DNA from: an uncultured bacterium
Lineage (GTDB): Bacteria > Chloroflexota > UBA5177 > JANWHV01
DNA length: 64,000 bases
Assembly: GCA_963827235.1 (NCBI GenBank)
Contig: CAWHAE010000012.1
Location: forward strand, 928,001-992,000
Direction: 5' to 3'
Shown here: one piece after another, positions 16,861-48,114 of the stretch
Position numbering within the stretch: position 1 is the stretch's first letter
Layout: every line of letters begins with the position of its first letter
Program-made: the position numbers and the translations under genes
The notes under the pieces: generated by a model
Database searches by the model: none
What the model was told of the DNA's origin: nothing
Seen by the model: the letters and a program-made list of their open reading frames with translations, nothing else

Positions 16861-17655
16861 CTACGCGCCGCGATTCCGGCGCCGTCCCGCGGCCGGCGCC
16901 GGTACGTCCGCCATGGTGGGCGCGACCGCCAGCGCGCTGTGTTCCGGCACGCCGGCCCGCCTCGGCAATCCTCCCGGAGTCTCGGCCATCTTCTGGTAGC
17001 GAACGAGGCAACGGCCGATGCTGCCTTCAAGGACGACCGGCGTCACCACGGGCGGTGATGCATGCAGAATCTGCCGCGCGGCTTCGGCCTCCGCGATCTC
17101 GTCGCTCAGCGTGCTTGCTCCCTTGTAGAGGATTACCTCGCCCATGCGGCGTACAAACGGGATCGTGAGCTCGAGCAGGACGTTGGTGCGCGCCACTGCT
17201 CGGGCCACGCAGAGATCGTACGCCGCTCGGTGACCTACCTCGTGCGCCACGTCCTCGGCCCGCCCTTGCACGACACGGAGGTTGTCCAGGCCGAGCTGAT
17301 CTCTGGCCAGATCGAGAAAGCGAACCTTCTTGGCCGTCGCTTCCAGGACCGTCAGGTCCCAGTGAGGGAAGGCGATGGCCAGCGGGATACCTGGAATGCC
17401 GGCACCCGATCCCACGTCCAGGCAGGTGCGCGCTGCGTCGACCCGGTTGCCGGAAATCGCCGGCATGATGGTCAGCGCGTCAAGAAGGTGACGGGACCAG
17501 AGCTCCGACACGGCACCTGGTCCGATCAGATTGAAGCGCTGGTTCCAGCTCAGGAGAAGCTCGGCATAAGCCTCGAAGGTCGCCATCTGGCGTACATCGA
17601 GGCTCATACCAAGCGAGGCACTCCCTTGTCTGAGGAGTGAGCCGTCATCTGCCAT
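16861..17655 (-). CDS. rsmG: 16S rRNA m7G527 methyltransferase RsmG
   Basis: WNQRFNL, RHLLDAL, LDVGSGAGIPGIPLAI, KKVRFL, GRAED, ARAVA, LYKG, PRRAGVP. Confidence 0.93.
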   Translation of the reverse strand: MADDGSLLRQGSASLGMSLDVRQMATFEAYAELLLSWNQRFNLIGPGAVSELWSRHLLDALTIMPAISGNRVDAARTCLDVGSGAGIPGIPLAIAFPHWDLTVLEATAKKVRFLDLARDQLGLDNLRVVQGRAEDVAHEVGHRAAYDLCVARAVARTNVLLELTIPFVRRMGEVILYKGASTLSDEIAEAEAARQILHASPPVVTPVVLEGSIGRCLVRYQKMAETPGGLPRRAGVPEHSALAVAPTMADVPAPAAGRRRNRGA

Positions 17656-21965: not shown

Positions 21966-22760
21966 TCACGACGGCGGTACGTCCTCAGACGAGCCGCGGA
22001 CGGCGGCGGCGTTTCGATAGAGACCGCGCAGGTCGTCGATCCTGATCCGCACCAGGTCGAGCGTCATGCTGAGCGTGTCGGGAGCCGCCCGCACGCGCGA
22101 ATCGTCGTTGAAGTACCAATCGATGCCCACGACCTTCATGGAATATCCGCGCTTCCGCGCCAGGAACAGCACCTCGGCGTCGAAGCTGAAGCCATCCATG
22201 CGCTGGCGAGCAAAGAGATCGCGCGCCGGGCCTCTGCGGAAGCCTTTGAATCCGCACTGCGTATCGTCCAGGCCGCGGATGACAAGCACTTTCACCAGCA
22301 GATTGAAGACACGGCCCATGACATGGCGCCGGGCAGGCTCGCCGTAGCGTTGGGCGCCGGGGCCTTCTCTGGACCCGACCGCGAGATCGAATCCGCCATC
22401 TAGGGCTTCGATGAACCGGTCGAGATCGTCTATGGGCATCGAAAGATCGGCATCGCAAAACACGACGTAGGGCATGGTCGCCGCCAGCATACCGGCGCGC
22501 ACCGCGGACCCTTTGCCGCGATGCGGCAGCGCGATCAAGCGCAGACCTGGCATCTGGCGGGCGCGCAGTTCCACCAGGGCGCCCGTGCCGTCCTCGCTGC
22601 CGTCATCGCAAACAAGCACTTCCAGTGGCCTGCCGAGGTGCGTGCCGTAGCGGGCAATCTCGTCCAGGGCCCGAGGCAAACGGCGCTCCTCGTTGTAGGC
22701 GGGAATGACGATGCTTAGCCCGGGTCCGGCCGGAAGGCCTTCTTGCGTGTCGTCCGTCAT
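21966..22760 (-). CDS. GT2 polyprenol-phosphate glycosyltransferase (DPG/DPM synthase-like)
   Basis: SIVIPAYNEERRL, DDGSEDGT, GKGSAVRAG, DADLS, DTQCGFKGF, FSFDAEVL. Confidence 0.9.
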   Translation of the reverse strand: MTDDTQEGLPAGPGLSIVIPAYNEERRLPRALDEIARYGTHLGRPLEVLVCDDGSEDGTGALVELRARQMPGLRLIALPHRGKGSAVRAGMLAATMPYVVFCDADLSMPIDDLDRFIEALDGGFDLAVGSREGPGAQRYGEPARRHVMGRVFNLLVKVLVIRGLDDTQCGFKGFRRGPARDLFARQRMDGFSFDAEVLFLARKRGYSMKVVGIDWYFNDDSRVRAAPDTLSMTLDLVRIRIDDLRGLYRNAAAVRGSSEDVPPS

Positions 22761-22956
22761 GGTGTCGGGTCACCTCCGGGCTTCCTGGCGCTGGCCCCCA
22801 GCGGCTTGCCAACACGGGATGGCGGCGCGCTTCCTGGACGGCAGCGCCTATGCTCACCCGCCCTACCGCGGCGCGAACTGAATCCAGAAGGCACGATATC
22901 CCATCCGGCCGATCACGAGCAGCCCGTCGATGCCCACGAGCGCGGCACGTGACCCA

Positions 22957-23649
22957 CTAGGTCGGCTTGCCCGTGAGGACGACGCCGATCACCGGCGCCT
23001 TCACGCGGTCGAGCAGATCTCGCGCCCGGCGCGCGTCAAGCCGATGCGTCTTCCCGGGCTTGACGGCAATGATCACGCCATCCACCAGCCTGGCCAGATC
23101 CAGGCCGTCGACCTGCTCAAGGATAGGGGCGCCAATGATAATCACCCTGTCCGCGCTCTTCTTGAGCTGCTGCAGCACCTCGGGCAGGCGCTTGGCTCGT
23201 CCGATGCCTCCCGGAACGGGCGCGGCAGAACCGGCGCCGATCAGGTGCAGACCCGGCACCTCGGGCACGGCGTTCAAGGCAGCCACGAAATCGGGGGACT
23301 CGTCCTGGATGAGATTCTTGAAGCCGAGCGTAGCGGAGAGAGAAAACAGCGACTCCAGGCTGGGCGTGTGCGGATCGCCGTCTATCAACACCACGCTCTC
23401 ACCGTCCTTTGCCGCCAGAATAGCCAGATTGACGGCAACCGAGCACGCCGCGGCAGACGCATCGATGGCACTGACCAGGATACTGGTCCCCTCGGCTGTC
23501 ATGAGCTCGTACTTCACGTTCAGAAATGCCTGCTCGTAGGCCTTCCGGAGCGAATCCGGACACGCCGATTCCGTCACGAGCGCACCGGTACCGTGCGACT
23601 GTGCTATGGCGGTGCCTACCCGACCACTATATCCCTGCGTACCAACCAT
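22957..23649 (-). CDS. CpsD/CapB-like BY-kinase homolog, catalytically degenerate
   Basis: AVNLA...VVLIDGD...PSL, LHLIGAG, VDGVII, IGVVL; Walker A and B altered; no Tyr cluster. Confidence 0.8.
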   Translation of the reverse strand: MVGTQGYSGRVGTAIAQSHGTGALVTESACPDSLRKAYEQAFLNVKYELMTAEGTSILVSAIDASAAACSVAVNLAILAAKDGESVVLIDGDPHTPSLESLFSLSATLGFKNLIQDESPDFVAALNAVPEVPGLHLIGAGSAAPVPGGIGRAKRLPEVLQQLKKSADRVIIIGAPILEQVDGLDLARLVDGVIIAVKPGKTHRLDARRARDLLDRVKAPVIGVVLTGKPT

Positions 23650-23721
23650 CAGTGTGTATTCCTGTCATTCTGCCTGCTCTCATGCCGGCAATTTCTCCAT
23701 GACGTAGCGCCAGGGAAACGA

Positions 23722-24450
23722 TCACTTGCCATTCGGCAAGACGCCAAGCGTCGCGGTGTGCATCCAGATCCGCACGTCCTGCTCGTCGTGAATGCTCTCA
23801 TCCAGATACTCCCACAGGAATGCGAGAGCGATGCCGAGGACCACGCCGGCCAAGGCCTTGGTAAGCCAGCTCAAGACCGTGGAAGTCAGCGACATCGTGG
23901 TCGTGCTCGGTGGATCGAGTGTGCGCCAGGTTATCGGGAATTCCTGTAATTCCCCGCCGGGAGCAGTTTGGAGCGCGGTCTTGTTATATTCAGGCAGGAA
24001 ATCGCGACTCAACACCACCACGGCGGCGTTGACGAGGTCAAGCGCCTTGCTTTGACTGGAAGACTTGTACTCCAGCTCCAGGTCCCGTCCGCCGGTGACG
24101 TTGGCGCCAAGTACGGAGCGTATCACCTTCCAGTCGATCTTGAGATTGTAGTGCTGGAGAATGTACGCCTGAAGCGACTTGGGGTACTGCAGCTGAGTGG
24201 TGAAATACTTCGCCGCGCCGGTGGCGCTTCCCGCGTTGCCCAGGGCGGCGCCAATCGGATCGATATAGATGTTCGCGGTCTTGTAAATCGGTGCTTCTTG
24301 GGAAAACTCGATAGTCGTCTGTGCCTTATAGTAGCTGCCATACAACGTGTACGCGGTATATGCCGCCGCCAGTACGGCCACGACGACAACGGTCGTCACG
24401 ATGATACGCCACTGACGCTGCAATACGCGCCAGTACCAACGAAGTTCCAA
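23722..24450 (-). CDS. CpsC/CapA/Wzz-type polysaccharide co-polymerase
   Basis: TTG start after GGAGGT; ELRWYWRVLQRQW + TM, YKAQTTI, second TM then EYLDESIHDEQDV...LGVLP. Confidence 0.82.
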   Translation of the reverse strand: MELRWYWRVLQRQWRIIVTTVVVVAVLAAAYTAYTLYGSYYKAQTTIEFSQEAPIYKTANIYIDPIGAALGNAGSATGAAKYFTTQLQYPKSLQAYILQHYNLKIDWKVIRSVLGANVTGGRDLELEYKSSSQSKALDLVNAAVVVLSRDFLPEYNKTALQTAPGGELQEFPITWRTLDPPSTTTMSLTSTVLSWLTKALAGVVLGIALAFLWEYLDESIHDEQDVRIWMHTATLGVLPNGK

Positions 24451-24609
24451 GAGCGAGTACCTCCCTATGCTTTCCAGTCGATGGTAATAGATCGGGCCTA
24501 CTTCAGGCCAGGGACATCTCCGCCGCCCGACGAGGCGCAGAGCAAGTATTCGGCTCGGGCCTACCGAGCGCGAGCGCATTCGGCGGACGCGCCGGGTGAG
24601 CAGGCATTG

Positions 24610-26184
24610 CTAGTAGGCGCCGTTGCGCGTGATCACTGCCAGGATGGTGCGCAGCATGATCTTGATGTCGAGCGTCAGCGACCAGTTGTCAATATAGTAG
24701 GTATCCATGATGATGATCTCTTCGAAGCTCTCGATGTTGCTTCTGCCGCTGACCTGCCAGTATCCGGTAATGCCGCCTATCACCTCGAGCCGCTTGAAGT
24801 GGTGCGGCGCGTAGTTCGCCACCTCGCTGGGCAGCGGAGGGCGCGGCCCGACCAGGCTCATGTCACCCCGCAGCACGTTGATCAGCTGCGGCAGCTCGTC
24901 GAGCGATAGCCTGCGCAGAGAGCGGCCCACGCGGGTGCGCCGGGGGTCGTTCCTGTCCTTGAAGATCCGCGGGTCGGCGATTCCCTTCTCCGCGATCAGC
25001 TTGTCCAGCATCTCGCCGGCATTGACGTACATCGAGCGGAACTTCAGGAACGTGAACGGCTTGCCGCCTTTGCCGATGCGCTGTTCCTTATAGAGAATGG
25101 GCCCACGAGAGTCCAGCTTGACGGCAAGCGCGATCAGCAGGAGCACCGGCGAAGCGATCAGCAATGCCAGACCGGCCAGCACGATGTCGGCCGTGCGCTT
25201 AACGGCGCGCGCCACGCGGCTATGCCGCCTGCGTTCCACGTCGATCAGCGGAATCCCGGCAATGTGATCCATGCGCACGCGGGAGAGACTGAGCTCGAAG
25301 AGATCCGGCACCAGCTTCACTGCCACGTCGGCCGCTTCACAGTGCGCGCAGATCGCTGCGATGTCGTCGTGATTGGTAGCAGGCAGGGTGATGATCACCT
25401 CGTCAATCGCCATGTCGCGCACGATGTCGGTAATGCGAGAGACGTCGCCCAGGCAGGCGAAGCGACCGAAGTTAGCGTACGCGCACGACGCGTCTTCCGG
25501 CGAGACCTCGTCGAGCGAGAGCAGCGATTCGCGCACGAAGCCGATCAGGTGGTAGCCGTGATTCCGCTTGGTGAGTAAGTTCTGCATCACCATCTTGCCG
25601 ACGGGCGTTGCGCCCGCCACCACCACGCGCCGCGTATTCCAGCCGCTGCCGTGCAGCCGGGCCAGGAGAGCATACAGGAAAAAGCGACCGAGAATCAGCA
25701 GTGCCACCAGCAAGAACCAGGCATAGACGATGACCAGGCGCGATTCGACTTTGACCGGCATATAAGCGGTGACGATGGATATGAGGCCGACCCCGACCAG
25801 GCTGCTGCGGCACAGGTCGAGCAGCTCGTCGGGGAGGTCTCGTCCCAGCCTCAGCCTATAGGCCCCACCGAAAATCAGGCTCAGGCTCTCGATCACGCTG
25901 AACACGATGCCGAATGGGATCCAGTCCTGAAATGGGACCCAGACAAGACCGCGCTCCACGGGCACCCACTGTACGACGTAGCGCAACATGTACGCGCAGC
26001 AAAATGCCAGCCAGATCAGCGTCGAGTCCAGAACGGCGCCGATCACCGCCAGCTCGAGGCGAGCACGTCGCTGTGCCTCCGGCAACACTCGGGTGAGACC
26101 GGCCCGCCCCGGATCCCCGCTCAGCACCTCGATGCGCGTTGTGACGGCAAGCGACGGATCGACAATTGTAGGAGCCTGTGCCAT
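24610..26184 (-). CDS. Undecaprenyl-phosphate sugar phosphotransferase (WcaJ/CpsE family)
   Basis: KRTADIV, KFRSM, DPRRTRVG, SLDELPQLINVLRGDMSLVGPRP, GITGYWQVSGR. Confidence 0.93.
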   Translation of the reverse strand: MAQAPTIVDPSLAVTTRIEVLSGDPGRAGLTRVLPEAQRRARLELAVIGAVLDSTLIWLAFCCAYMLRYVVQWVPVERGLVWVPFQDWIPFGIVFSVIESLSLIFGGAYRLRLGRDLPDELLDLCRSSLVGVGLISIVTAYMPVKVESRLVIVYAWFLLVALLILGRFFLYALLARLHGSGWNTRRVVVAGATPVGKMVMQNLLTKRNHGYHLIGFVRESLLSLDEVSPEDASCAYANFGRFACLGDVSRITDIVRDMAIDEVIITLPATNHDDIAAICAHCEAADVAVKLVPDLFELSLSRVRMDHIAGIPLIDVERRRHSRVARAVKRTADIVLAGLALLIASPVLLLIALAVKLDSRGPILYKEQRIGKGGKPFTFLKFRSMYVNAGEMLDKLIAEKGIADPRIFKDRNDPRRTRVGRSLRRLSLDELPQLINVLRGDMSLVGPRPPLPSEVANYAPHHFKRLEVIGGITGYWQVSGRSNIESFEEIIIMDTYYIDNWSLTLDIKIMLRTILAVITRNGAY

Positions 26185-26185
26185 G

Positions 26186-27331
26186 CTAGGCGCCCTCCAG
26201 CGCTTCGGCGTAGATCTCGGCCACCTGTTCCGTTGTGCGGCACCAGTCGAACCGGCTCGACTGAGCGAGCCCGCGGCGTACGAGGTCCGCGCGAAGTTCG
26301 CCGTCGCCCGCCATACGGCACAGTGCCTCGGCCATGCATCCTCCGTCCTCGGCATCCACGAGGATCGCTGCATCGCCTGCCACCTCGACCAGGCTGCTGT
26401 TGCGTGCCGTGATCACCGGGCAGCCGCAGGCCATCGCTTCCGCCACGGGCAGGCCAAAGCCTTCGTAGAGCGACGGGTACACGAACGCCGCCGCGGATCT
26501 GTACCAGAGCGGTTGATCCTCGTCCGCCACGTAACCGGGGAACTGCACGCAGTCCTCGAGGCCAAGAGCCTTCACACGCTCGAAGATCTCCTCGTACAGC
26601 CAACCTTTGGCGCCGACCAGCACGAGCGGCCAGTCAACGCCCTTGAGACGGGCGGCATGGTAGGCGTCGACGAGGCGCACCAGGTTCTTGCGTGGCTCCA
26701 GCGTGCCCATAAAGAGAAAGTAGCGGTCGGGCAGCGCGTGCTCTTCGCGAAACCGAGCCAGGCGATCGTCGGCGAGCGGCTCGCGAAAGCGATCCTCCAC
26801 GCCAAGATAGGCCACGCGCACGCGCCGCTCGGGCACGCCGAGCAGCCGGACCACGTCGCGCTTGGTGTTCTGGGAGCTGGCGATCACGCGACGAGCGCCG
26901 CGCGCGCTGAGCCGCGTGAAGGTGGAGAGGTACCGGCGGCGTCCCGGCAGGAAACGCTCCGGGAACAGCAGAAAGCTCACGTCGTGAATCGTGACCACGC
27001 CGGGAATGCGCCTGGCGAGCGGTAGCACGTTCAGGGTGCCGTGAACCACGTCGATCCTGTGCCGGGTGAGAAGGGCGGGCAGGGCCGTCTGTTCCCACAG
27101 AATGCGCTGCGCGGGCTTCTCCGTGTTGAGCCTGCTGCGTACCACCTCAAAGCGGCCGTCGCCGTGCAGCGACAGCGCCGTACAATCGGCGTTGGTAAAG
27201 ATGGTGTACTGGTTGGGTGTGGAGAGCGACGGCAGCGTGCGGAGCAGGTGATAGATGAAAGCTGCTGCACCGGCGTTGCGATACGTTCGCGCGAAGGTCA
27301 ACAATTGCGCATTGATACCGATCCGCGCCAT
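26186..27331 (-). CDS. GT4 glycosyltransferase (MtfB-like)
   Basis: VVTIHD, GTLEPRKN, YPSLYEGFGLPVAEAMACGCPV. Confidence 0.93.
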   Translation of the reverse strand: MARIGINAQLLTFARTYRNAGAAAFIYHLLRTLPSLSTPNQYTIFTNADCTALSLHGDGRFEVVRSRLNTEKPAQRILWEQTALPALLTRHRIDVVHGTLNVLPLARRIPGVVTIHDVSFLLFPERFLPGRRRYLSTFTRLSARGARRVIASSQNTKRDVVRLLGVPERRVRVAYLGVEDRFREPLADDRLARFREEHALPDRYFLFMGTLEPRKNLVRLVDAYHAARLKGVDWPLVLVGAKGWLYEEIFERVKALGLEDCVQFPGYVADEDQPLWYRSAAAFVYPSLYEGFGLPVAEAMACGCPVITARNSSLVEVAGDAAILVDAEDGGCMAEALCRMAGDGELRADLVRRGLAQSSRFDWCRTTEQVAEIYAEALEGA

Positions 27332-28146
27332 ACCACTCCCGCGTGACCACGACGCCAAGGACGCCCGATCTTCACCGCCTTCTCCGCTCGCGCCGGAGGC
27401 GCATGCGACTCCGGCCGAGCGTGGACAATGATGTGAGTATACCGCGAGCGGCCGTGACGGCACGCCGATCCGGCTTGCCACTACAGATTCGCCCTGGCCA
27501 CCGTGGTCATGCAATAGTTGTCTCTACCTGTGGCCAGATTACAGTTCTACGGCACGGACACGTACATGCTCATCGCCAGACTGCCCCACTTGTACTTAGG
27601 CGACTGTGAGCTGAGTGGGCTGTGTCTAGCCGGCCCATGGGGACCGCCCTTGTAGGTGGCCGCCGGCATCGTGGTTCCTGCACCGAGCGCACGGTTAGTC
27701 CCACCACAGTTCCAGCAGGCGCGCCGGCCGGTCGTCGTGCAGGCTGGGACATACGAAATCGACGTACCCCCTGCTCGACCACCTCCAGCAGGTCGAGTTG
27801 TAGCTGCTGCACCCAGGCTTGCAAGTCCTCGAGATGCAAGGCGTCCCGTAGGAGGAACAAGCGGTGGCCGCCTCGAACGTGATGGGCAAGCCGCCTACGT
27901 GCCCATACGTCGGGTGCGCCAGGTGTTGCGGTGCGCCGCCTTACCCGGGCGCAGACCTCGGCAGCCGAGCTTTACCGCCTGAAGCCGCTCACTCATGTTG
28001 CGATTGGGGCATACGGCATGTAGGGCGAGGCCATGTCGTCGAGTGCCGGTAGGGAGCGTCCGGCATGGATGAGCCTGCACCGGCAGCCGAAGGCGGAGCG
28101 TGGCTGGCGCGCTGGCAGCAGCTTGCCCCTCGTCCTTTGGCCCTGA

Positions 28147-28175
28147 TTGACAGGGGGCAACTCGAATCGTAGCAT
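28147..28175 (+). promoter_or_regulatory. sigma70-type promoter of the LCCL-hcp operon
   Basis: TTGACA (28147-52), 17 nt, TAGCAT (28170-75); GGGAGGTG RBS downstream. Confidence 0.65.
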
Positions 28176-28253
28176 GGGGGCAAGTCTGCTTGAGCTCGCT
28201 GAAGGACGAGCCCAAACGGCCGTCCCAGCGAAGATTGAGTCCGGGAGGTGCCT

Positions 28254-29504
28254 ATGGCGCTGCGACTGGCTCGGCTGGCGTTTGCCTCACTGATCATCGT
28301 ACCGCTTGCGCTCCTCAACCGCTCTCCCGGTCAGCTCTCCTCGGCAAGAGCGTCGAGCGCGACCGGCATCGCATCGGCTCGACACGCTGCGCTGTCCAAC
28401 GCCGCCGTCAGTCGCGTCACAGCGGCGGCTCTGCCTGCCTTGACGGTGCCCGGTGGGGCGGACTGGGCGGCATCGGCGAAGGACGTGCCCGGCGATGCCG
28501 GAACACAGTCTCTGTTCGTCTGCCCCGCCAAAGGTACGCTAGACCAACCAGTGTGGGGCACAGACACCTATACCGATGATTCGGCCGTCTGTGTGGCCGC
28601 TGTCCACACCGGGGCGATCACGGTGGACGACGGCGGCTTCGTCACCATCGAGATTCGACCGGGGCTCGACAGCTACGCGGGCAGCACGCGCAACGGCGTG
28701 ACGAGTGAGGACTTTGGCTCATGGGATCGGAGCTTTGCCATCGTCACTGCCATCAGAGGCAGTGGCGAGGACGGCGTGGCCGTGGGAGGCGGCTCGTGGG
28801 ACGCGACGGCCACGGATTTTGCGGACTCGACAGGATCCCGGTACCTGTACCTTTGCCCACCGGGTGGCCACGCCAGGCGTGTATGGGGCACGTACACCTA
28901 CACATCCGACTCATCTGTCTGCACGGCAGCTGTGCACATAGGACTCATCACCGCCGCGGCCGGCGGCTACGTGACGGTGCTCTTGGGTGGCGGTGCTGAC
29001 TCGTTCGAAGGCTCAGCACGGAACGGCGTGACGACCAGCGACTATGGTTCATGGGGAGCCACATTCACGTTTCCCTCTGCGCCGCTACCGGCCACAGCGA
29101 CCGCCTCAGCGGCTCAGACTGTGCCTTCGACGAGTCCGTCTGCGACACCAACCGCGACGGCAACTCCTGCGCCGGTCCTGGCGCCGCAGATCCGGGTGAG
29201 CTATCACTACCTCGCAGGGTACCGCGCGATCGTGGCAGGCACAGTGCTGCCCGTGCGCGTGATGGCCACGCCGGGCAGCACTGTGACGGTACGCATATCG
29301 CTGCGGCTAGATGAGCCGAACTCGTCTGCAGTCGTGTTCAAACGGCAGAACAGTGTCAAGATCGGCGACATGGGCGTCGCCACGGCGGCGGTGTACATAG
29401 ACACCCGACCGACGCGGTGGGAGTTCGCCGTGCTGACCGTTTCGGCTATCGCGGCCGATGGTAGTAGCGATACGCAGCATCTGCAGGTCGTCATCTTTCC
29501 TTGA
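28254..29504 (+). CDS. Secreted protein with two LCCL domains, Pro/Thr linker and C-terminal beta domain
   Basis: Signal peptide; VWGTDTYTDDSAVCVAAVHTG and VWGTYTYTSDSSVCTAAVHIG, each followed by GSxRNGVT(S/T). Confidence 0.85.
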   Translation: MALRLARLAFASLIIVPLALLNRSPGQLSSARASSATGIASARHAALSNAAVSRVTAAALPALTVPGGADWAASAKDVPGDAGTQSLFVCPAKGTLDQPVWGTDTYTDDSAVCVAAVHTGAITVDDGGFVTIEIRPGLDSYAGSTRNGVTSEDFGSWDRSFAIVTAIRGSGEDGVAVGGGSWDATATDFADSTGSRYLYLCPPGGHARRVWGTYTYTSDSSVCTAAVHIGLITAAAGGYVTVLLGGGADSFEGSARNGVTTSDYGSWGATFTFPSAPLPATATASAAQTVPSTSPSATPTATATPAPVLAPQIRVSYHYLAGYRAIVAGTVLPVRVMATPGSTVTVRISLRLDEPNSSAVVFKRQNSVKIGDMGVATAAVYIDTRPTRWEFAVLTVSAIAADGSSDTQHLQVVIFP

Positions 29505-29573
29505 GAGGTGACGGAAAGTCCGCAGTATCGAAGGCGCGCATGACTGCGTAGCAGGCAAGGAAGAAGGGAGAAC

Positions 29574-30089
29574 GTGACCGTGGCCTATGAGTTTTACCTC
29601 CAGCTCGTCGGACGGAAGACGGGCCAAATCAAAGGTGCGTCGACCAGAAAGGGCTATGAGGGCTGGATACCGGGCCTCCACATGTCCCACTCCATCGTCT
29701 CCCCGCGAGATGCGCAGAGTGGCTTGCCGACCGGCCAGCGCTTGCACAGGCCGTTCACCTTCATCAAAGCCTGGGATGCAAGCAGCGCCTTGCTGCTGAA
29801 CATGCTCTGTACAAATGAGGAGGTATCGAAGTGCACCATTGACTTCGTGCATACGGTGATGGTACCGGGCGGCGCGTCACTGCAGCCGTACTTCACGATT
29901 CAACTCACAGACGCCAACTTTGCGTCGTATGACGCATTCACCGCGAACGCCGATCAGCTGAACCTGTACGACGCCGAAGACCTGGAGGAGTGGTCCCTTA
30001 CCTACCAGAGTATCGACTGGTCCGTGCCATCCGGGATCTCGGCCACCGATGACCGGGTACGAATGTCGCCCGCCACATTGGGCAGTTGA
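29574..30089 (+). CDS. hcp: Hcp/TssD-family tube protein (orphan)
   Basis: FYLQLVGRKTGQIKG, SHSIVSPRDAQSGLPTGQRLHRPFTFIKAWDASS, YFTIQLTDA, LEEWSLTYQSIDW. Confidence 0.9.
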   Translation: MTVAYEFYLQLVGRKTGQIKGASTRKGYEGWIPGLHMSHSIVSPRDAQSGLPTGQRLHRPFTFIKAWDASSALLLNMLCTNEEVSKCTIDFVHTVMVPGGASLQPYFTIQLTDANFASYDAFTANADQLNLYDAEDLEEWSLTYQSIDWSVPSGISATDDRVRMSPATLGS

Positions 30090-30105
30090 CAGGGGGATAC
30101 AAGCG

Positions 30106-30657
30106 ATGAACGATATCGAGAAGGCGCTGTATGGGCTCTCCGAGCGAGTTGCAGCGCTGGAGGTCGAGAACGCTCGGCTGCGTGCCGAGCACCACGGACG
30201 GACTCAGGCGGTCAGTGGAACGGCCACGTATAGCCGGCGCGGTCTGCTGGCCGGGAGCGCCGGGATGCTCGGCGCCGTGGCGGCCGCAGTGACGCAGGTG
30301 CCTGTGGCAGCCGGTGCCGCTCCCGCGTCGAACGAGGGGGTCGTACAGGCCACGCAGTACCGTGAGCCGCACATCCTCGGCACCCGAGTGCGGCTGACGC
30401 CTCAGCACGGGGGCGGCGCCTACTCCGCACGCTACGTCTGGGACATGGATGGAACCTTCGCCGGTGACGAGCCCCCAGCCGTGATCGCGGCTGCCTCAGA
30501 CGACTATCACGGGAGCAGTGAGCGCGCCGAGCCCACGATTGCCGTTGCGCTACGGCGGAGCGGGCGTACGTGGCAGGCAGAGATAGTAGTGAACCACGTC
30601 GGCCACCTGGCAGCCGAAGTGACGTTGAACGCGATCGCATTCGGCTCGCGGTCGTAG
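30106..30657 (+). CDS. Hypothetical protein: N-terminal coiled coil + twin-arginine-like signal + small beta domain
   Basis: LSERVAALEVENARLRAE followed by YSRRGLLAGSAGMLGAVAAAV...VAAGA; GGGGGA RBS; third gene of the operon. Confidence 0.7.
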   Translation: MNDIEKALYGLSERVAALEVENARLRAEHHGRTQAVSGTATYSRRGLLAGSAGMLGAVAAAVTQVPVAAGAAPASNEGVVQATQYREPHILGTRVRLTPQHGGGAYSARYVWDMDGTFAGDEPPAVIAAASDDYHGSSERAEPTIAVALRRSGRTWQAEIVVNHVGHLAAEVTLNAIAFGSRS

Positions 30658-30752
30658 CTCACAGAGCATCCGCTCAAGCAAGTCCAAGAATCCAGCGTCC
30701 GAGACGAGGGCGCCAGACGCGTGCGAGCCGGTGAATTCACATGTCAGGTCGC

Positions 30753-31430
30753 TCAAACGCGCTGTGCCCGCTTCAACTCGACGATGATGCCCCAATCATC
30801 GGTCTCGCCAATGTTTTCGACGTCGTGCCAGCCTCCAGCCGACCAGTTGGCGACGCCCTGGCGGATGTCCGTCTCCCGCGCCGTGCCGTCAGGCAAGGAG
30901 AAGCGCACCCGTGCGGTGCTCAGGGCATAGGCCACGCACGGCGGGTGCGAGTGCATCCCGGTGCTCTCGCCAGGCCTGATTCGCAGTTCCAGCACGCGCA
31001 CCGCGTCATTATCGAGCAGCACGGTGTGGTCCTTCGGCGGCACGGAGGCAGCGGGAGCAGCGGCATCGGGCATCACCGCCTGCGTGCTGAAATCCACGGC
31101 GACGTACGGCGCTTCGCCGATCACCCAGGTGTCATGGCCTGCCGGTATGGCGAAGGCATCCCCCGCCGCCACCTCGCGCTCGGTACCGTCGGCCATACGA
31201 ATTCCGGCCCGGCCCGACACGACGTAGCCGGTGTGCGGGATCATGCACAGGTCGGTCCCCGCCGCCGGCCTGGCATGCTCCGTCCAGCGAAAACCTGGCT
31301 GGAAGGTGACCCGATTCGCCACGGTCTCGCCAAGTTGGATTACCTCGACGCGGGCCATGCTTCCCATCGGGAAGGTCTGGTCCGGCACATCAAAGCTCTT
31401 GGCCAGGGTCAGGGTGGTCATGGTGGTCAT
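30753..31430 (-). CDS. Tandem-cupin protein
   Basis: FQPGFRWTEH...CMIPHTGYVVSG...IPAGHDTWV and IRPGESTGMHSHP...WHDVENIG. Confidence 0.82.
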   Translation of the reverse strand: MTTMTTLTLAKSFDVPDQTFPMGSMARVEVIQLGETVANRVTFQPGFRWTEHARPAAGTDLCMIPHTGYVVSGRAGIRMADGTEREVAAGDAFAIPAGHDTWVIGEAPYVAVDFSTQAVMPDAAAPAASVPPKDHTVLLDNDAVRVLELRIRPGESTGMHSHPPCVAYALSTARVRFSLPDGTARETDIRQGVANWSAGGWHDVENIGETDDWGIIVELKRAQRV

Positions 31431-31607: not shown

Positions 31608-34067
31608 CTATAATGCCCCGGGCGCCCGTGCCAGTCCCTGATCGACCGCCCACCCGGCGATCTGCGTGCGGGAAGTAAAGCCCAGCTTGCTCAGAATGTG
31701 CTTGACATGCAGCCGGGCCGTACCCTCGGTGATGAAGAGGGCACCACCAATCTGGCGGTTCGTCAGGCCCTGCGCGACCAGCGCCACTACCTCCCGCTCG
31801 CGGACAGTCAGGCCGAGCTCCTGACGGTTACCGGGCGGGTCGCCTGCCTGCTCGGCAAGTGCCTCGGTGATCATCCGCTCTAGTGGCAGTGCGCGCCCCG
31901 CCGCCCAGGCTGCCGCCAGCCCGGCCTTGCCCAATCTGCCGAGGACCTCGCTCAGGGTGCGGTCATAACTGGCTTCGTTGGCAGGCCACATCGTGGCCCC
32001 GATTGCCTCGCGAAGCGCTTCCGCCGCTCCAAGTAGCTGCGCTGCGCGTTCCGGCTGCTTCAACGCAGCCAAGACGCCGGCAAGACCGGTCAGGCAATCG
32101 GCGACACCGCGCTGATCCCCTTGGTCCCGGAACAGCCCGAGGCTCTCTCGGAATAGCCTGCGCGCCCGCTGGGGCTCTCCTCCGCGCAACGCCACAGCGC
32201 CCAGGTTATGGAGCAGACTGGGCACACTGCCGGTGAGGCCTTGCCGCCGCAGTAGCGTGAGAGCTTCATCATAGCGCACTCCGGCGCCCGCGAAGTCGTC
32301 CTGGCTCCGAGCCAGATCGCCAAGCATGTTGAGCACCTGCGCTATGCCCCAGTCGTCGCCAAGTGCCCGGAACCACGCAAGTGCCTCCTGCAGCTGCGCC
32401 TGTCCCCGCCCCGAGGGATCGCCGTCGCTGATCAGCGCAGAGAGATCCAGCGCTGCCATGGCCATGGCCACGCCCCAGGCGTCGCCGATCTCTTTGAACA
32501 GCCTCAGGCTCTCCGCGGTCGACGCAGCCGCTTGCGGATGGCCATTCGCCATCGGCAGCGATTGCAGGGTGTAGGCAAGCCCGCGCTTGTCGTCGAGCGA
32601 GCGAAACAGTGAGGCACTCTCTTCCGCCCGCGCCCGCGCCAACTCGTTCTGGCCCACCAGCCAGGCCAGCTCGGCGGAGGCGTAGAGTGCCTTCGCGCGA
32701 ACAGCCGGAGCGGCGTCCTGGCCCCCGGCCAGCGCCGCTTCAAGCCAATCGAGTCCTTCGCTTACCTCACCGCGCAGATTCCAGAACCAGCCAAGCGCCC
32801 CGGCCAGCCGCAGACCCAGCTCTCGTGCGCTCGCCTCGGCGGCACGCCTGCTCCAGCCTAGCGCCGCGCGCAGGTTGTCCTGGTTCTGCGCCAGGCGCTC
32901 CAGCCAGGGGCCACGCTTCCCGCTCATGAGCCTCGGCTCGGCCATCTCTGCCAGTCTCCCGAAGTAGCGCGCATGGCCGCGCTCCGCGCCACCGGCTTCG
33001 CCGCTCATAGTCAGGCGCTCCAGAGCGTACTGCCGCACCGGTTCCAGCAGGTGGTAGCGCGCCTCCCCCAGCTGCATTGTTGGCTCGACGAGCGACTTCT
33101 CGACTAACGCCGTCAGGAGCGGCAATACGTCGGCCGGCGCAATCTCCCTGTCACTGCAGACGCTCTCCGCCGCCTCGACCTCGAAGCCTCCAGCAAATAC
33201 CGCCAGCCGGCGGAAGAGTGCCTGCTCCGCGTCACACAGCAGCGCATGGCTCCAGTCAAGCGTCGCTCGCAGCGTTTCCTGCCGCGGCTGAGTCCGGCTG
33301 CCGCCGCCGAGCAGGCGGAGTCCGTTGTCCAGCCTGCCGACAATCTGATCCGGTGTCAACGTCCACAACTGCGCAGCGGCCAGCTCGATCGCCAGCGGAA
33401 GACCTGCGAGCTGCCTGCAGATCGCCGCGACGGCGGGCGCAGTCTGGGCGGACAGCGCGAAGGCAGGCTGCCGTGCGCGAGCTCGATCGAGGAACAGCGC
33501 TACCGATTCGACCTGAGCGAGAGACTCCGGCGATGGGAGTGGTTGCACGCCGGGCACAGCGAGCGACGGCACGCGCCAGGTGACCTCGCCGGGTATACGC
33601 AGCGGCTCGCGGCTGGTCGCCAGAATCCGCAGGCTCGGACAGGCCCGTAGCAATGTCTCTGCCAGCCGGGCACAGCCGCCGATTAGGTGCTCGCAATTGT
33701 CGAGTACAAGCAGGATCTGCCGCGAGGCCAGTGCGGCTACCAACGTCGCCACCATCGAGCGGCTCGCGGCCCCGCGTATTCCCACCGCGGCGGCGACGGC
33801 CCGTGGCACGAAGGCCGAATCGGTGAGCGGTGCCAGCGGCACGAACCAGACGCCGTCGGGAAAGCTCTGCGCAGCGTCGGCAGCAGCGCGCACCGCAAGC
33901 CGCGTCTTGCCGCAACCGCCGGCACCGGTCAGGGTGAGCAGCCGCGCCCGCGCCACGAGGCGCCTGATCTCGGCGATCGCGCCCTCGCGGCCGACAAAGC
34001 TGGCGATCTCGGCAGGAAGGTTGTGCTTGGCAGGCGTGCCGTGGCTTACCGGCGACAAGTGGACCAT
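31608..34067 (-). CDS. STAND-type ATPase + TPR + LuxR HTH transcriptional regulator
   Basis: HNLPAEIASFVGRE, GAGGCGKTRL, LVLDNCEH, TSREPL, GLPLAIELAAA, TPRs, LTVREREVVALVAQGLTNRQI. Confidence 0.92.
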   Translation of the reverse strand: MVHLSPVSHGTPAKHNLPAEIASFVGREGAIAEIRRLVARARLLTLTGAGGCGKTRLAVRAAADAAQSFPDGVWFVPLAPLTDSAFVPRAVAAAVGIRGAASRSMVATLVAALASRQILLVLDNCEHLIGGCARLAETLLRACPSLRILATSREPLRIPGEVTWRVPSLAVPGVQPLPSPESLAQVESVALFLDRARARQPAFALSAQTAPAVAAICRQLAGLPLAIELAAAQLWTLTPDQIVGRLDNGLRLLGGGSRTQPRQETLRATLDWSHALLCDAEQALFRRLAVFAGGFEVEAAESVCSDREIAPADVLPLLTALVEKSLVEPTMQLGEARYHLLEPVRQYALERLTMSGEAGGAERGHARYFGRLAEMAEPRLMSGKRGPWLERLAQNQDNLRAALGWSRRAAEASARELGLRLAGALGWFWNLRGEVSEGLDWLEAALAGGQDAAPAVRAKALYASAELAWLVGQNELARARAEESASLFRSLDDKRGLAYTLQSLPMANGHPQAAASTAESLRLFKEIGDAWGVAMAMAALDLSALISDGDPSGRGQAQLQEALAWFRALGDDWGIAQVLNMLGDLARSQDDFAGAGVRYDEALTLLRRQGLTGSVPSLLHNLGAVALRGGEPQRARRLFRESLGLFRDQGDQRGVADCLTGLAGVLAALKQPERAAQLLGAAEALREAIGATMWPANEASYDRTLSEVLGRLGKAGLAAAWAAGRALPLERMITEALAEQAGDPPGNRQELGLTVREREVVALVAQGLTNRQIGGALFITEGTARLHVKHILSKLGFTSRTQIAGWAVDQGLARAPGAL

Positions 34068-34281
34068 CCCGCTCTCTCCTGGACAGCATCGACGACCAAC
34101 CACGCACACGCTCAACGGACTGACGCTCACACGACACCGGTCGCAACCGACAGGTGTCACCAATCGCACGCCCACTATCAGGCTTGCGAAGGTGATGTCA
34201 TAAGGGTACACATCCTGGATCTCACGGGCATGGTCGGCCGGCATCGTCGCCCTTCATCGGCGCCTGGATCGCGCTCAGCTT

Positions 34282-39322: not shown

Positions 39323-39537
39323 GAGGCGCGAGCGGTCGGCTCGCTGACCGAGCACTGCATCTCCCTGTCCTCCATGACGCCCAGCTGGAGCCCTGGCAAT
39401 CGAGGGGTCGACGAAGCCCGGAAGCGCTAGGTCACCGGTAGTTTGGAGGCCGAGCAATGCGACGTGACAGGGGCGATGCAGACGATCTCAGACCGGCGAG
39501 GCGGTTGACATGCCGGGCGCGCGTTTCCGGGGGGACT

Positions 39538-41775
39538 ATGCGCGTGGCGCACGGAGCGTGTGACGGCGAGTCCGGCCACGGCGACCACGAACAGGCTGTG
39601 AGGACGCCGGCCGGCGGGCCACAGGTGCCTTCGAGGCGCCAACGCCGCTACCCGGTCGCCGTCTGCATCTTGGCGCTGCTCATCGCGCTACTACCAGCAC
39701 TGGCGGTCGACTGTGCGCTGGCCGGCGCGCCGTTCGCGCCCGCCCCGACCGCCCGCGCGGATGCCAGCGGTCCGGCGGCACTGCCGCTTGCCTGGACCAC
39801 CTTCCTCGGCGGGAAGGCTCGCGACGGCAGCGAAGGAGTCGCCGTCGACGACGCCGACGACGTGGACGTGACCGGCTCCACCAACTCCTCCGACTTCCCA
39901 GCCGGTGGAGGGGCTGCCCAGCCGCACTTTGCCGGCGGCACCGACGCATTTGTCGCTCAGTACACGCCGAGTGGGCAGGTGCGCTGGGCCTCCTATCTGG
40001 GCGGAAAGGCCGAGGACATCGGGTATGCCGTCACCGCGGACAGGCGAGGCAACGTCTACGTCGCCGGCGAGACCGCTTCCCTCGACTTCCCCGTGTCCGC
40101 AGGCGCGGCCCAATCCCACTATGGGGGAGGCGAATACGACGCTCTGGTGGCGTCCTTCACGGCGGATGGACGGCTGCGCTGGGCGACGTACCTGGGTGGG
40201 ACAGGGGACGACGACGGCGGCGGCATCGTCGTCGACGCGCTGGGCAACGTCTACGTGACCGGCTTCACCACGTCCCGCGATTTCCCGGTCAGCCCCCGGG
40301 CCGCCCAGCCGCACTTCGGCGGCGGCCTTGCCGATGCCTTTCTGGCCAGCTTTGACACCGGCGGCCGTCTGCGCTGGGCCACCTACCTGGGCGGCACGGG
40401 CGACGACGGTGCCAATGGCGTCGCCGTAGACGGGGCGGGGAACGCCTACGTGACCGGCTCGACGGAGTCGATGGACTTCCCGGTGACTGCAGGCGCCGCG
40501 CAGCCCCACTATGGCGGCGGAGATGATATGTGGGGCGACGCGTTCGTGGCATCCTATGCCGCCGGGGGACGGCTGCGCTGGGCCACCTACCTGGGCGGTG
40601 AGGCTGGGGAGGGCGGGCACGCGATCGCCGCGGACGCCCAAGGCACCGTCTACGTCGCCGGTATTGCCGTGCCGATCCTCGACGCGGCCGGCAGCACCGT
40701 GCTGCCCGACTTCCCGGCCAGCCCGCAGGCCGCCCAGCCGCACTGCGGCGGCTCTGAGGATGCCTTCCTAGCCAGCTTCGACACCGGCGGCCGTCTGCGC
40801 TGGGCCACCTACCTGGGCGGGACGGACAACGACTGGGCCAACGGCGTCGCCGCGGACGAGCAGGGCGGCGCCTACGTGGTCGGTGACACGCTGTCGACAG
40901 ACTTCCCGGTGACAGCAGGCGCCGCTCAGCCTCAGTATGGCGGTGGAGACGACACGCTGGGCGATGCGTTCGTGGCCACCTATGATGCTGGGGGACAGAT
41001 GCGCTGGGCCACGTACCTGGGCGGGACGGGCGACGACAGTGCCAGCGGCGTCGCCGCGGACCGACAGGGCGGCGCCTACGTCACCGGCGAGACGGCTCTC
41101 ACGCAGGACGAATTGGTCGCCGATTTCCCGGTCACGGCGGGTGCCGCGCAGTCGCTCTCCCCGGGCAGCGACGACGGCTTCCTTGCCCGGGTGGTTGCCC
41201 CGCGCGTTCGGCCGCCCGGCCTGAGCCCCACCAAGCCGCCGGCAGCGGGCTCCGCCCACACCCGGTACTTCCCGCAGACCCACCACGCGCTGGCCGGCGC
41301 CGCGCTGGCCTATTGGGACCAGTTAGGCGGCATCACCACGCTGGGCCTGCCGCTCTCCGAGCCCTTCACCCTGGCTGGCAAGCGGATGCAGGCTACCGAG
41401 CGCGCCGTGCTGCTCCTGCCGTTGGGCGGGGTCCGACTGCTACCGCTAGGCAGCCTGCTGGGCTCCGCCCGTGCCACCAGCCCGCTGCCCGCCTCGCCAA
41501 GTAGCGCCAGCCGGCTCTATTTCCCCAGCACCGGGCATAGCCTCAGCGGGCCGTTCCTGGCGTACTGGCGAGCGCACCAGGGCAGCGTGCTGCTAGGGGC
41601 GCCAATCGCGGAGCCGGACCGGGAGGCCACGGGGGACGGGACCGGCCATACCTATCTCGTGCAGTGGTTTGCCAACGGCCGGCTGGAGCTGCACGCCGAG
41701 GCGCAGGATCCGCGCTACCAGGTGATGCAAGGGCGCGTGGGCTACGAGTATCTGCACCGGCTCGGCTTTGCGTGA
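39538..41775 (+). CDS. Secreted SBBP-repeat beta-propeller protein with Chloroflexota-type C-terminal surface repeats
   Basis: About 7 repeats WATYLGGxxxD...VAxDxxGNxYVTGxTxSxDFPV; C-terminal RYFPQTHH/YFPSTGHSLSGPFLAYW...LGAPIAE...VQWFANGRLE. Confidence 0.88.
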   Translation: MRVAHGACDGESGHGDHEQAVRTPAGGPQVPSRRQRRYPVAVCILALLIALLPALAVDCALAGAPFAPAPTARADASGPAALPLAWTTFLGGKARDGSEGVAVDDADDVDVTGSTNSSDFPAGGGAAQPHFAGGTDAFVAQYTPSGQVRWASYLGGKAEDIGYAVTADRRGNVYVAGETASLDFPVSAGAAQSHYGGGEYDALVASFTADGRLRWATYLGGTGDDDGGGIVVDALGNVYVTGFTTSRDFPVSPRAAQPHFGGGLADAFLASFDTGGRLRWATYLGGTGDDGANGVAVDGAGNAYVTGSTESMDFPVTAGAAQPHYGGGDDMWGDAFVASYAAGGRLRWATYLGGEAGEGGHAIAADAQGTVYVAGIAVPILDAAGSTVLPDFPASPQAAQPHCGGSEDAFLASFDTGGRLRWATYLGGTDNDWANGVAADEQGGAYVVGDTLSTDFPVTAGAAQPQYGGGDDTLGDAFVATYDAGGQMRWATYLGGTGDDSASGVAADRQGGAYVTGETALTQDELVADFPVTAGAAQSLSPGSDDGFLARVVAPRVRPPGLSPTKPPAAGSAHTRYFPQTHHALAGAALAYWDQLGGITTLGLPLSEPFTLAGKRMQATERAVLLLPLGGVRLLPLGSLLGSARATSPLPASPSSASRLYFPSTGHSLSGPFLAYWRAHQGSVLLGAPIAEPDREATGDGTGHTYLVQWFANGRLELHAEAQDPRYQVMQGRVGYEYLHRLGFA

Positions 41776-41978
41776 GCGGCGCCATCGCGCAGGGCGTGCT
41801 CGTTGACGCGGTCCCGCACTGCCGCCCGGACGGGGCTGGCCGCGCGCGGTGCGGGATGATGCTGCGGCGGCGGGAGATAGCCACAGGCTGACAAGCGGGC
41901 TCCAGCGGTCTATAGTGGTGCTGTTGAGTCCGGCCTGTCGCGAGTATGGCGGCCGGAGCCGGGAACGGGAGGTTGCTC

Positions 41979-44396: not shown

Positions 44397-44623
44397 CAGG
44401 CGCCGCCGATCTCGCTTGCGAATTCCGGCCTGGAGGTCCTGAGCGATGCTCCTCCCGAGCGGCGGGCCGTGTCCGCTACCGCCATATCTCCGATCGCCAA
44501 CCGCTCGGCTGCCCGTTTGATGCCGGTCACTGGACGCACGATGCGATCGGCGAGGAACGGGACGAGCGTAACAACGCCCAGGAAGGTGTTCCCCTGCAAC
44601 ACCGGCGCCGTCACGCCGAACAT
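44366..44623 (-). pseudogene. HAMP-domain (chemoreceptor-like) gene fragment
   Basis: TM followed by LADRIVRPVTGIKRAAERLAIGDM; no complete ORF. Confidence 0.45.
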
Positions 44624-44704
44624 ATCGACGTTCGAGCCACCGTCGTCAAAGAAGGGCTCGGCGATAGAGGGCCGACGCGTCTGCTTGGGCCCGGAATACC
44701 GGGT

Positions 44705-45127
44705 CTAACCGGGATCGTGACAGTTGTAGAAGGCGTCCGTGAGATTGGGCCAGCCCGCGAGAGAGAGATCCCACGTCTGACCGCCATCCGCGGTACGCAG
44801 AATGTGGAACGCGGACGCCGTGCCGGCGATGCAGGTGTTGATGGTGGAGCAGGCGAGACCCCAGGGACCCGGATCGGCGCCCGCAAGCAGCGACTTCCAG
44901 GTGCTTCCGCCGTTGCGCGTCCCGACGACTGTGCCCTGCGCTGCCGTGGCGCAGCAGACCCGGCGGCTGGGACAGGCGATCACGTATATCTCGCTGCCGG
45001 TCTGGCTGTCGACCGCGACCCACCCGGCGGACGACGAAGCGGAGGTCGCCGCCACACTCGGTGCGTCCAACACAGCCACAAGCAACGGCAGGAAAAGGAG
45101 CAGGACTGCCCGGAGATGTGCGACCAT
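44705..45127 (-). pseudogene. Truncated Cys-rich Asp-box repeat protein
   Basis: AAGGG RBS, signal peptide, only two repeats (IACPSRRVC...TRNGGSTW; LACSTINTC...TADGGQTW) before the stop. Confidence 0.6.
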
Positions 45128-45507
45128 ACGTCATACCCTTCCGGGGCCGACAGCGAACCGGGTCCGGCCGCAGGTTACGACCATGTGCCCAGCATAGCAA
45201 GCACGACCGCCCCACCGCACGCGTGGAAGAAGGCGATCAGCGCGGATCGACAAGATTTAACGCTGTCTTCATCGGCAGTTAACATGCCGACGCCGCACAT
45301 TCTCATTGCTATGCACCGAACCGGACCGTGAGCAGCCCATGCGGCAGCGGCTCGAATCGAGGCACACCGATGCCGACCACAGGCGCCGGCCATCCAGGGA
45401 TGCTCCGGAGCTTGCTGCCGTGAACCGCCGCGGGGGAGCTCGCTCCACCATCGAGTCGTCGCCCGGGATGCCCTACGCCTAGAAAGCAGCAGCACCTCTC
45501 AGCGGAC

Positions 45508-45667
45508 GAGCGCGCTGGGCTCGTCTCACCGCGTTCCACAAGACAGCGCGACATAGCACAAGATCGGCCAAGCTCATCAGAGGAAGCGTCGCGCCGCTCC
45601 TGCAACAACGGTGCAAGATAGCCCGCGTATGCTGGCTCTGTGTCGACGACTACCCACTGGAGTTGCG
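45508..45667 (+). repeat. ~160-bp non-coding repeat containing the phased CAAGA promoter, copy 2
   Basis: Aligns by eye with 48115-48275; boxes at 45537, 45557, 45601, 45612; -10 TATGCT 45628. Confidence 0.85.
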
Positions 45668-48048: not shown

Positions 48049-48114
48049 CTGCAGATGCGACGAAGCAGCGCCATTCCAGATCAATGTCGTGCACGCGTGA
48101 CGCGAGTGGCGGAG

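Follow-up and report, generated by a model that had tools for sequence, protein, structure and literature searches.

Hcp is treated as a marker for type VI secretion systems (T6SS), and annotation calls genes of this family 'T6SS tube protein'. What might an Hcp be doing in a bacterium in whose genome none of the searched core families of such a system was found? The question is raised by a stretch of 64,000 nucleotides from an uncultured member of the Chloroflexota (contig CAWHAE010000012.1, positions 928,001 to 992,000; hereafter the window). At positions 28248–30657 it carries three genes, all on the forward strand: one for a secreted protein with two LCCL domains, one for Hcp, and one for a small protein headed by a twin-arginine translocation (Tat) leader, for which we use the working name ORF3. 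A sequence-only reading of the window had described these genes as closely spaced and co-directional, which we confirmed, and had proposed a T6SS-independent use of Hcp in a probable Chloroflexota host, a proposal supported by the negative results for core genes and for Omp85 and by the conserved linkage of the genes. Our best reading is that Hcp acts outside the cell without a T6SS, in this case probably getting there on its Tat partner. The constituent protein families are known, their joint use is not, and the locus represents a distinct orphan-Hcp module with a new partner family and an LCCL-led operon. The literature that we covered, mostly at the level of abstracts and with supplements outside its scope, described neither a Tat- or Sec-exported Hcp nor an Hcp from Chloroflexota, and no Tat leader with a zipper.

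The LCCL–Hcp–ORF3 locus

The second gene of the trio (29580–30089, +) encodes a protein of 169 residues without a signal peptide when read from GTG 29580, with GTG 29574 as an alternative start; GAAGGGAG precedes the start. The protein matches PF05638 (2.7e-25, 89.6 bits against a cut-off of 23.5) as well as TIGR03344 (3.6e-25, 88.8 bits against 58.9), in keeping with its earlier description as an intact Hcp/TssD. Moreover, a profile made of the window Hcp and 22 relatives matched the solved structure of Hcp3 (3he1) at 1.5e-42. Judged by these family matches, the gene encodes a true Hcp. The form on record has 169 residues, and the frame is open from stop to stop for just 181 residues, therefore leaving no space for a hidden leader.

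The longest open reading frame of the third gene spans 30049–30657 (202 residues), and the form in the protein collection (P0001) has 183 residues from ATG 30106. This ATG lies 16 nt past the Hcp stop codon and 9 nt after AGGGGGA, and ORF3 is best read from it (30106–30657, +). The family is rare: 5.8 billion clustered proteins yielded 12 relatives, and a set of 1.84 billion representatives yielded 16 clusters at 1e-10 or better. In the AlphaFold2 model (mean predicted local distance difference test score, pLDDT, 74.5; about 90 in the sandwich described below), residues 3–31 (30112–30198) form a leucine-zipper-like helix with a heptad core of I4, L8, L11, V15, L18, N22 and L25. The buried Asn is reminiscent of the GCN4 zipper, to which the helix gives weak matches (E 0.007–0.02), and L11, V15, L18, N22 and L25 are invariant in ten family members.

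A Tat signal is defined by the motif S/T-R-R-x-hydrophobic-hydrophobic, after which come a stretch of weak hydrophobicity and an Ala-x-Ala site. The internal SRRGLL noticed in the sequence-only reading is real: it occupies residues 43–48 of the 183-residue protein, behind the zipper-like helix, and is followed by a weakly hydrophobic, Gly/Ala-rich helix and by a conserved Ala-rich site near residues 71–72, a probable signal-peptidase site, the whole element reaching to about residue 73 (30232–30324). In the alignment of ten members, S43, R44, R45, L47 and L48 are invariant and A71 and A72 nearly so; in a set of 16 sequences R44 is invariant and R45 nearly invariant. ORF3 has the layout of the Tat motif and is predicted from it to carry a twin-arginine signal whose N-region is unusually long.

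Residues 89–180 of ORF3 (30370–30645) are modeled as a seven-strand β-sandwich, for which two aligners returned H-type lectins and C-terminal domains of phage tailspikes and R-pyocin fibres as the best fold matches. The comparison with Helix pomatia agglutinin (2ccv, VIA) covered 84 of 99 residues with Z 8.3 and a root-mean-square deviation of 2.4; SLL-2 (3wmp) reached Z 7.7, and phage tailspike C-termini and pyocin fibre tips Z 6.7–8.1. Foldseek returned the same proteins, with a best E of 1.7e-3. Thus, H-type lectins (2ccv, 3wmp and the discoidin C-terminal domain) are among the best matches of two independent aligners, but the scores are borderline (Z 6.7–8.3; Foldseek E 1.7e-3 or weaker). 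In the Protein Atlas, residues 75–183 scored only 0.83–0.87, values that count as leads, and one cluster (rank 30) had H_lectin on 26% of its members. A lectin assignment is consistent with these comparisons but not strong, and sugar binding is a prediction only.

The first gene (28248–29504, +) encodes 418 residues with two LCCL domains (PF03815, 6.8e-42, 142 bits against a cut-off of 22.6) behind an N-terminus that, read directly, resembles a Sec signal (MPMALRLARLAFASLIIVPLALL...SSARA). The domains are followed by a Pro/Thr/Ala linker and a C-terminal domain of about 100 residues. The signal-peptide protein with two LCCL domains of the sequence-only reading was thereby borne out. The sigma-70 promoter claimed for the operon fared less well: a site of the form TTGACA-17-TAGCAT, agreeing with the consensus at 10 of 12 positions, is present at 28147–28175 (+), but one such site was found where 0.4 would be expected from shuffled sequences, so that this consensus match is weak evidence.

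A linked pair in genomes without a detected secretion machine

The genome that holds the window (G000; 7.98 Mb in 21 contigs, 95.9% complete, 9% contamination) was searched for six core families of T6SS and extracellular contractile injection systems (eCIS). There was no match for TssC (PF05943), phage sheath (PF04984), VgrG-type proteins (PF05954), PAAR (PF05488), gp25/TssE (PF04965) or TssF (PF05947), with TssB, TssG, TssK and TssM lying outside the search; the controls were positive in every search, with E. coli as control for TssC, TssE, TssF, VgrG and PAAR. A complete T6SS or eCIS elsewhere in the genome, to which this Hcp could have belonged, was accordingly not seen at the level of these six families. 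Within the window, a Pfam scan of 40 further open reading frames revealed no T6SS or eCIS gene, in agreement with what had been read from the sequence. Omp85 gave no match in G000 and was found in all seven double-membrane control genomes; its absence therefore fits a single-membrane envelope. A published survey reports that diderm-type secretion systems were not found in monoderm genomes (PMC4793230). TatC (PF00902) is encoded in G000 (4.4e-54, at G000:C8). More broadly, Hcp was present in 16 of 401 sampled Chloroflexota genomes (15 of 400 without the unpublished G018), and TssC in none of the 15 other Hcp-bearing ones (none of 14 without G018). One of the sampled genomes, G324, which shares its phylum with the window, recurs with identical contig, coordinates and scores as G407 in the class of the Ca. 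Limnocylindria MAG to which L044 belongs; this places the host in the Chloroflexota.

The window contig is no contaminant of this assembly, because its flank is 77–79% identical to G001, a genome of the same genus. This identity, to G001:C11, extends over the polysaccharide-synthesis block upstream of the trio (to about 27360; positions 22024–31088 were compared). In the other four members of the genus (G001–G004), nothing matches the LCCL–Hcp–ORF3 stretch itself at the DNA level, save for the ORF3 C-terminus, which matches a frameshifted copy at G001:C10.

At the protein level, Hcp is present in all five genomes of the genus, and the ORF3 family was detected in all four besides G000. G000 has three Hcp loci and ORF3 family matches at four places; the leader is confined to three full-length ORF3 paralogues, each near an Hcp. 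Six of the ten ORF3-family loci in the five genomes have an Hcp within 2.5 kb (G000 C12, which is the window trio, C10 and C9; G001:C8; G002:C701; G003:C141). Two more stop at a contig end exactly where the syntenic G003 locus has its Hcp, and the two loci without a nearby Hcp are a partial and a frameshifted copy. Hcps linked to ORF3 fall into three lineages: the window type, an 'SPRD...GKR.H.P' type (G003, G004) and a 'MAVDYFLK' type (C10, G001:C8, G002:C701). Since ORF3 is tied to three Hcp lineages, shared descent alone is insufficient to explain the linkage. The ratio of nonsynonymous to synonymous substitution rates (dN/dS) is 0.14 for Hcp and 0.21 for ORF3 between G003 and G004, and it is 0.15 for the second Hcp type, values by which both Hcp and ORF3 are judged to be under purifying selection.

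Two open reading frames were rejected as spurious: L006:8830-9369(-) aligns poorly with ORF3, the real C9 paralogue being C9:140161-140709, and L005:8775-9290(+) is an Arg/Pro-rich wrong-frame product. In the sample of class and phylum, 55 of 56 further genomes were without the ORF3 family; the two weak partial matches in the remaining one (G017; E 5.9e-4 and 7.1e-4, within frames of 336 and 939 residues) we read as not belonging to it. A scan of genome contigs with the ORF3 alignment gave 58 pattern matches, none of which was confirmed.

A metagenome scan with the same alignment found three loci, two with an Hcp directly upstream and a third whose contig is cut 114 nt before ORF3. On contigs L124 and L126, both from one metagenome, the order is again 2xLCCL, Hcp, ORF3. 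Identity to the window proteins is 57% (L124) and 32% (L126) for Hcp and 62% and 57%, respectively, for the Tat protein; for the LCCL protein it was measured on L124 only, giving 56% for the two LCCL domains together and 35% for the C-terminal 140 residues. Given such low identities (LCCL 56%, Hcp 57% and 32%), the proteins have diverged considerably while their three genes have stayed in order. The L124 protein has an additional BNR propeller between the LCCL domains and the C-terminal domain, and LCCL and BNR are combined in one chain on both contigs. We had considered LCCL a chance neighbor, PF03815 being absent from the rest of the genus, and dropped this idea because the trio order recurs on metagenome contigs. 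Consequently, the linkage of all three genes put forward in the sequence-only reading stands for these contigs but does not extend to the other members of the genus. It is the Tat protein rather than the LCCL protein that regularly accompanies Hcp.

Elsewhere in the genus, the Hcp–ORF3 pair adjoins CHAP, DUF6345 or methyltransferase genes. A CHAP protein with a Sec signal is encoded at two of the loci. In three genus genomes, a Sec-signal protein of 737–754 residues with a weak DUF6345 match stands tail to tail with ORF3 (the DUF6345-like proteins are at L021:9475-11688 (-), L023:133-2397 (+) and L025:14-1732 (+)), and in G003 it lies between ORF3 and Hcp. At the C9 locus, the pair is accompanied by a methyltransferase and Hcp is a tandem double protein: L006:9252-10133 (-), identical with G000:C9:138251-139132, encodes 293 residues with two degenerate tandem Hcp domains (PF05638 in two stretches, 6.1e-14). 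This gene is downstream of the ORF3 paralogue P0043 and the S-adenosylmethionine-dependent (SAM) methyltransferase, and upstream of genes for an extracytoplasmic function (ECF) sigma factor and Rieske/cupredoxin proteins. We speculate that a tandem Hcp could form a trimeric pseudo-hexamer.

Hcps with export signals and a second Tat partner

The weak tail of an exhaustive ORF3 search contains proteins related to ORF3 in the leader only, and two of these, P0063 and P0068, are Hcps. The Hcp domain of P0063 is 40% identical to the window Hcp. A search with P0063 gave 613 matches; among the best 120, 26 have a length of 242–272 residues and cover at least 96% of the query. Of 15 sequences that were fetched, 13 combine a coiled coil, TRRDLL and Hcp. 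Carriers of the leader-fused Hcp include metagenome-assembled genomes (MAGs) of Ca. Limnocylindria (81% identity to P0063) and Mycobacteriales (48%). The ORF3 family was not found in the genomes of L044, L072 and L045.

The leader-fused Hcps of the Ca. Limnocylindria MAG (L044:2034-2783) and the Mycobacteriales MAG (L045:2335-3093) have neighbors in common, namely a divergent MTS/PrmA-like methyltransferase (478–491 residues) and, downstream, a Big_9/cadherin-repeat protein (1111 and 635 residues). The zipper/Tat leader also heads passenger families without a Pfam match (P0066, P0074, P0076 and P0080; P0072 and P0077; P0079 and P0084), one set of leader-bearing passengers ending in ...LWFCKGGT.W. 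Some Chloroflexota or Actinomycetota may use the leader as an export tag of general purpose.

Signals of other kinds are found on further members of the Hcp family. Among the Hcps of Chloroflexota, those of G154 and G263 have a Sec-type signal, that of G358 has a lipoprotein signal and that of G035 a membrane anchor; MAGs of Nannocystis encode Hcps with Sec signals. In two MAGs of archaea, assigned to Nitrosopumilales, a signal or anchor is followed by a collagen-like Gly-X-Y run and Hcp (L063:1286-2080 and L114:7686-8486), with an error in MAG binning being possible. Hcp has gained export signals more than once, as well-supported branches of the tree force at least two changes. Other additions to Hcp occur in Chloroflexota without T6SS at the C-terminus: a lectin-type Tectonin domain (L041:1080-2000, G162) and an extension of 220 residues without a known family (L043:1459-2571, G324).

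A second kind of Tat partner is encoded in G324 and G223, where a barrel protein with a Tat motif and weak Dirigent/AOC_like matches is located directly upstream of Hcp; its leader has no zipper. The ORF3 family is unrelated to the G324 barrel (hhalign probability 1.3%), and ORF3 has neither a Dirigent or AOC_like Pfam match nor such a barrel among its 50 fold matches listed. The two pairings are alike in that an orphan Hcp adjoins a small Tat-leader β-protein in T6SS-less Chloroflexota. In contrast to the barrel locus, the window has Hcp preceding its partner, a zipper in the leader and an LCCL gene at the head of the operon. The strongest indirect argument for a role of the pairing in export or in delivery to Tat is that two small Tat-leader proteins, unrelated to each other, both occur with a signal-less Hcp.

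Export on a partner and competing explanations

The reading that we favor, tentatively and at somewhat less than even confidence, is a type-VI-independent Hcp module in which Hcp folds inside the cell, crosses the membrane through Tat on ORF3 and acts outside on glycans. According to this model, the signal-less Hcp would fold in the cytoplasm and then bind ORF3, and the pair would pass the Tat translocase with a signal on one partner only, a mode known as hitchhiking. Cleavage by signal peptidase at the Ala-rich site, which is conserved, would then remove the zipper/Tat leader. Beyond the single membrane, the three partners (Hcp, the lectin-like sandwich and the LCCL protein) would jointly engage glycans, whether on the surface of the same cell or on a neighbor, as a scaffold or a carrier. 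More speculatively, the zipper might bring two precursors together, or it might keep the signal back until complex formation.

How does such a module compare with known systems? The window Hcp is a clear member of the T6SS Hcp/TssD family and, as T6SS Hcp, has no signal peptide. Unlike it, the window Hcp has a Tat-leader protein as its linked partner, comes from a genome in which neither the six searched core families nor Omp85 was found, and has relatives that bear Tat, Sec or lipoprotein signals. The module differs from an eCIS or tailocin in that no phage-type sheath, gp25-like wedge or gpD/VgrG-like spike was found in G000. Auxiliary hcp-effector islands of T6SS provide another comparison, Hcp being there the chaperone and carrier of small cargo. 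The arrangement of hcp followed by a small partner gene, with variable secreted neighbors that include CHAP amidase-like proteins at two loci, is similar, but the partner has a Tat leader of its own, the neighbors have Sec signals, and there is no T6SS to fire Hcp. The hydrogenase small and large subunits are a Tat hitchhiker pair, and, as in hitchhikers, a signal-less protein is here encoded beside a twin-arginine partner in a genome with TatC. On the other hand, Hcp and ORF3 are not cofactor-bearing redox enzymes, the N-region of 43 residues is zipper-like, and co-export of the two is a proposal. Tat hitchhiker complexes such as PaoABC are established for other substrates (PMC4273604, PMC10924467), and Hcp-fused toxins are mentioned in PMC3482391.

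A number of observations weigh against the favored reading. Binding of Hcp to ORF3, and export of either, are inferred from gene linkage. An Hcp hexamer, by the size of its ring, is a large cargo for Tat, and export as monomers or small complexes would therefore be required. ORF3 has no Pfam match at E 0.1 or better, hence none to a Pfam Tat signal, and it scores 22.3 bits (E 1.2e-4) against the Tat-target model TIGR02811, below the cut-off of 48.45; with its helical N-region of 43 residues the leader is atypical. As for the sandwich, Z near 8 is also the typical best score of models without a clear match, values below 8 can reflect a common arrangement of strands, and Pfam H_lectin (PF09458) is not matched. 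The trio is an insert specific to G000 behind a conserved polysaccharide cluster, missing from the syntenic place in G001, and PF03815 is lacking in four of four other genomes of the genus. The four core families left out of the search, together with the incompleteness and contamination of G000, also count on this side.

The tree of Hcps, which is poorly resolved, places the window Hcp with the signal-less P0014 and P0015 (SH-like approximate likelihood-ratio test, SH-aLRT, 86) and not with signal-bearing ones. This last point, which likewise speaks against export, would suit a different role, in which Hcp stays in the cytoplasm as a dedicated chaperone of the Tat-leader protein until hand-over to TatBC and only ORF3 and the LCCL protein leave the cell. 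TorD and DmsD chaperone their Tat substrates in this way, and Hcp is both chaperone and receptor of T6SS effectors. The window Hcp has neither a signal nor room for one. The long, invariant leader of ORF3, helical in the model, could pass for a binding site, and the coupling of the genes (16 nt in the window, overlapping reading frames at C10) suits a chaperone and its client as well as co-export. However, in related lineages Hcp is itself the passenger of this leader or of a Sec or lipoprotein signal, which puts the family's place of action outside the cell; moreover, the unrelated Tat barrel, a second partner of Hcp, lacks a zipper in its leader. We regard this explanation as fairly unlikely, though the strongest of the competing ones.

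It is also conceivable that the locus is the remnant of an hcp-effector island from a double-membrane T6SS bacterium, with a functionless Hcp and neighbors brought together by chance or shared mobility. The closest named relatives of the window Hcp are indeed in Myxococcota, Bacteroidota, Fibrobacterota and Acidobacteriota, the distribution of Hcp in the phylum is sporadic (the 16 of 401 genomes given above), the trio has no counterpart at the syntenic place in G001, and the CHAP amidases near the pair resemble T6SS amidase effectors. A functionless gene is hard to reconcile with intact frames and dN/dS of 0.14–0.21, with Hcp in every genome of the genus and three paralogous pairs in one of them, with a gene order kept on other contigs at 32–57% Hcp identity, or with the repeated gain of export signals by Hcp. 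Alternatively, Hcp could be the tube of an unrecognized or diverged contractile or tail-like apparatus, encoded elsewhere or unassembled, with ORF3 as its fibre tip. The resemblance of the ORF3 sandwich to tailspike C-termini and R-pyocin fibre tips would then have a simple meaning, and a genome 95.9% complete, searched for six core families, leaves some room for such an apparatus. Yet sheath, gp25, VgrG-type spike and PAAR are all missing from G000, as is TssC from the 15 other Hcp-bearing Chloroflexota; PHROGs gave no match for any of the three window proteins; a fibre tip has no need for a Tat leader of its own; and the fold matches include non-viral H-type lectins too. Because of dN/dS, copy number and missing core genes, both the decayed island and the undetected contractile system are less likely, the former being improbable in our estimate and the latter very improbable.

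The other genes of the window encode, according to the Pfam scan, proteins of polysaccharide synthesis, transporters, regulators and secreted repeat proteins. A crude gene caller based on G+C content at third codon positions missed the LCCL and GT4 genes, and its gene lists are incomplete. The secreted repeat proteins are clustered at 39457–48845 and comprise an SBBP β-propeller (39457–41775), two BNR/Sortilin-type propellers (41946–44396 and 45640–48048) and a second LCCL protein, with a single LCCL domain (48327–48845). A 1472-residue nSTAND1 NTPase with WD40 repeats is encoded at 55191–59609 (+) and a second nSTAND1 fragment at 62699–63298 (+), while two genes of RsmG/GidB-family methyltransferases lie within 36 kb of each other, at 16861–17655 (-) and 52489–53415 (-). 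Large STAND-type regulators adjoin three Hcp–ORF3 loci (window 31608–34244 (-), L019:10148-13366 (+) and L020:5544-8774 (-)), with the architectures AAA-TPR-LuxR, BTAD-AAA-TPR and cyclase-AAA_16 represented; their proximity may be due to chance, because such genes are common in these genomes.

What the favored export of Hcp on ORF3 would mean reaches beyond the window. Hcp is kept under selection in bacteria without the searched machine genes and without the Omp85 marker. If it acts outside the cell, T6SS is overestimated when Hcp is counted in metagenomes, Tat has a further class of cargo that is new, and Chloroflexota, Actinomycetota and even archaea have put a ring-forming tail-tube fold to another use, in surface or glycan biology. 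With only three genes, the module is small and directly testable in a Tat-competent laboratory host. A wider and decidedly doubtful generalization is that Hcp leads a second, T6SS-independent life in single-membrane prokaryotes, leaving the cell with a Tat, Sec or lipoprotein signal of its own or piggy-back on a zipper-Tat protein, and then forming an extracellular glycan-binding ring, tube or fibre together with lectin-like and LCCL proteins. If true, the phage-tail-tube fold would have given rise to an extracellular structure of a new kind.

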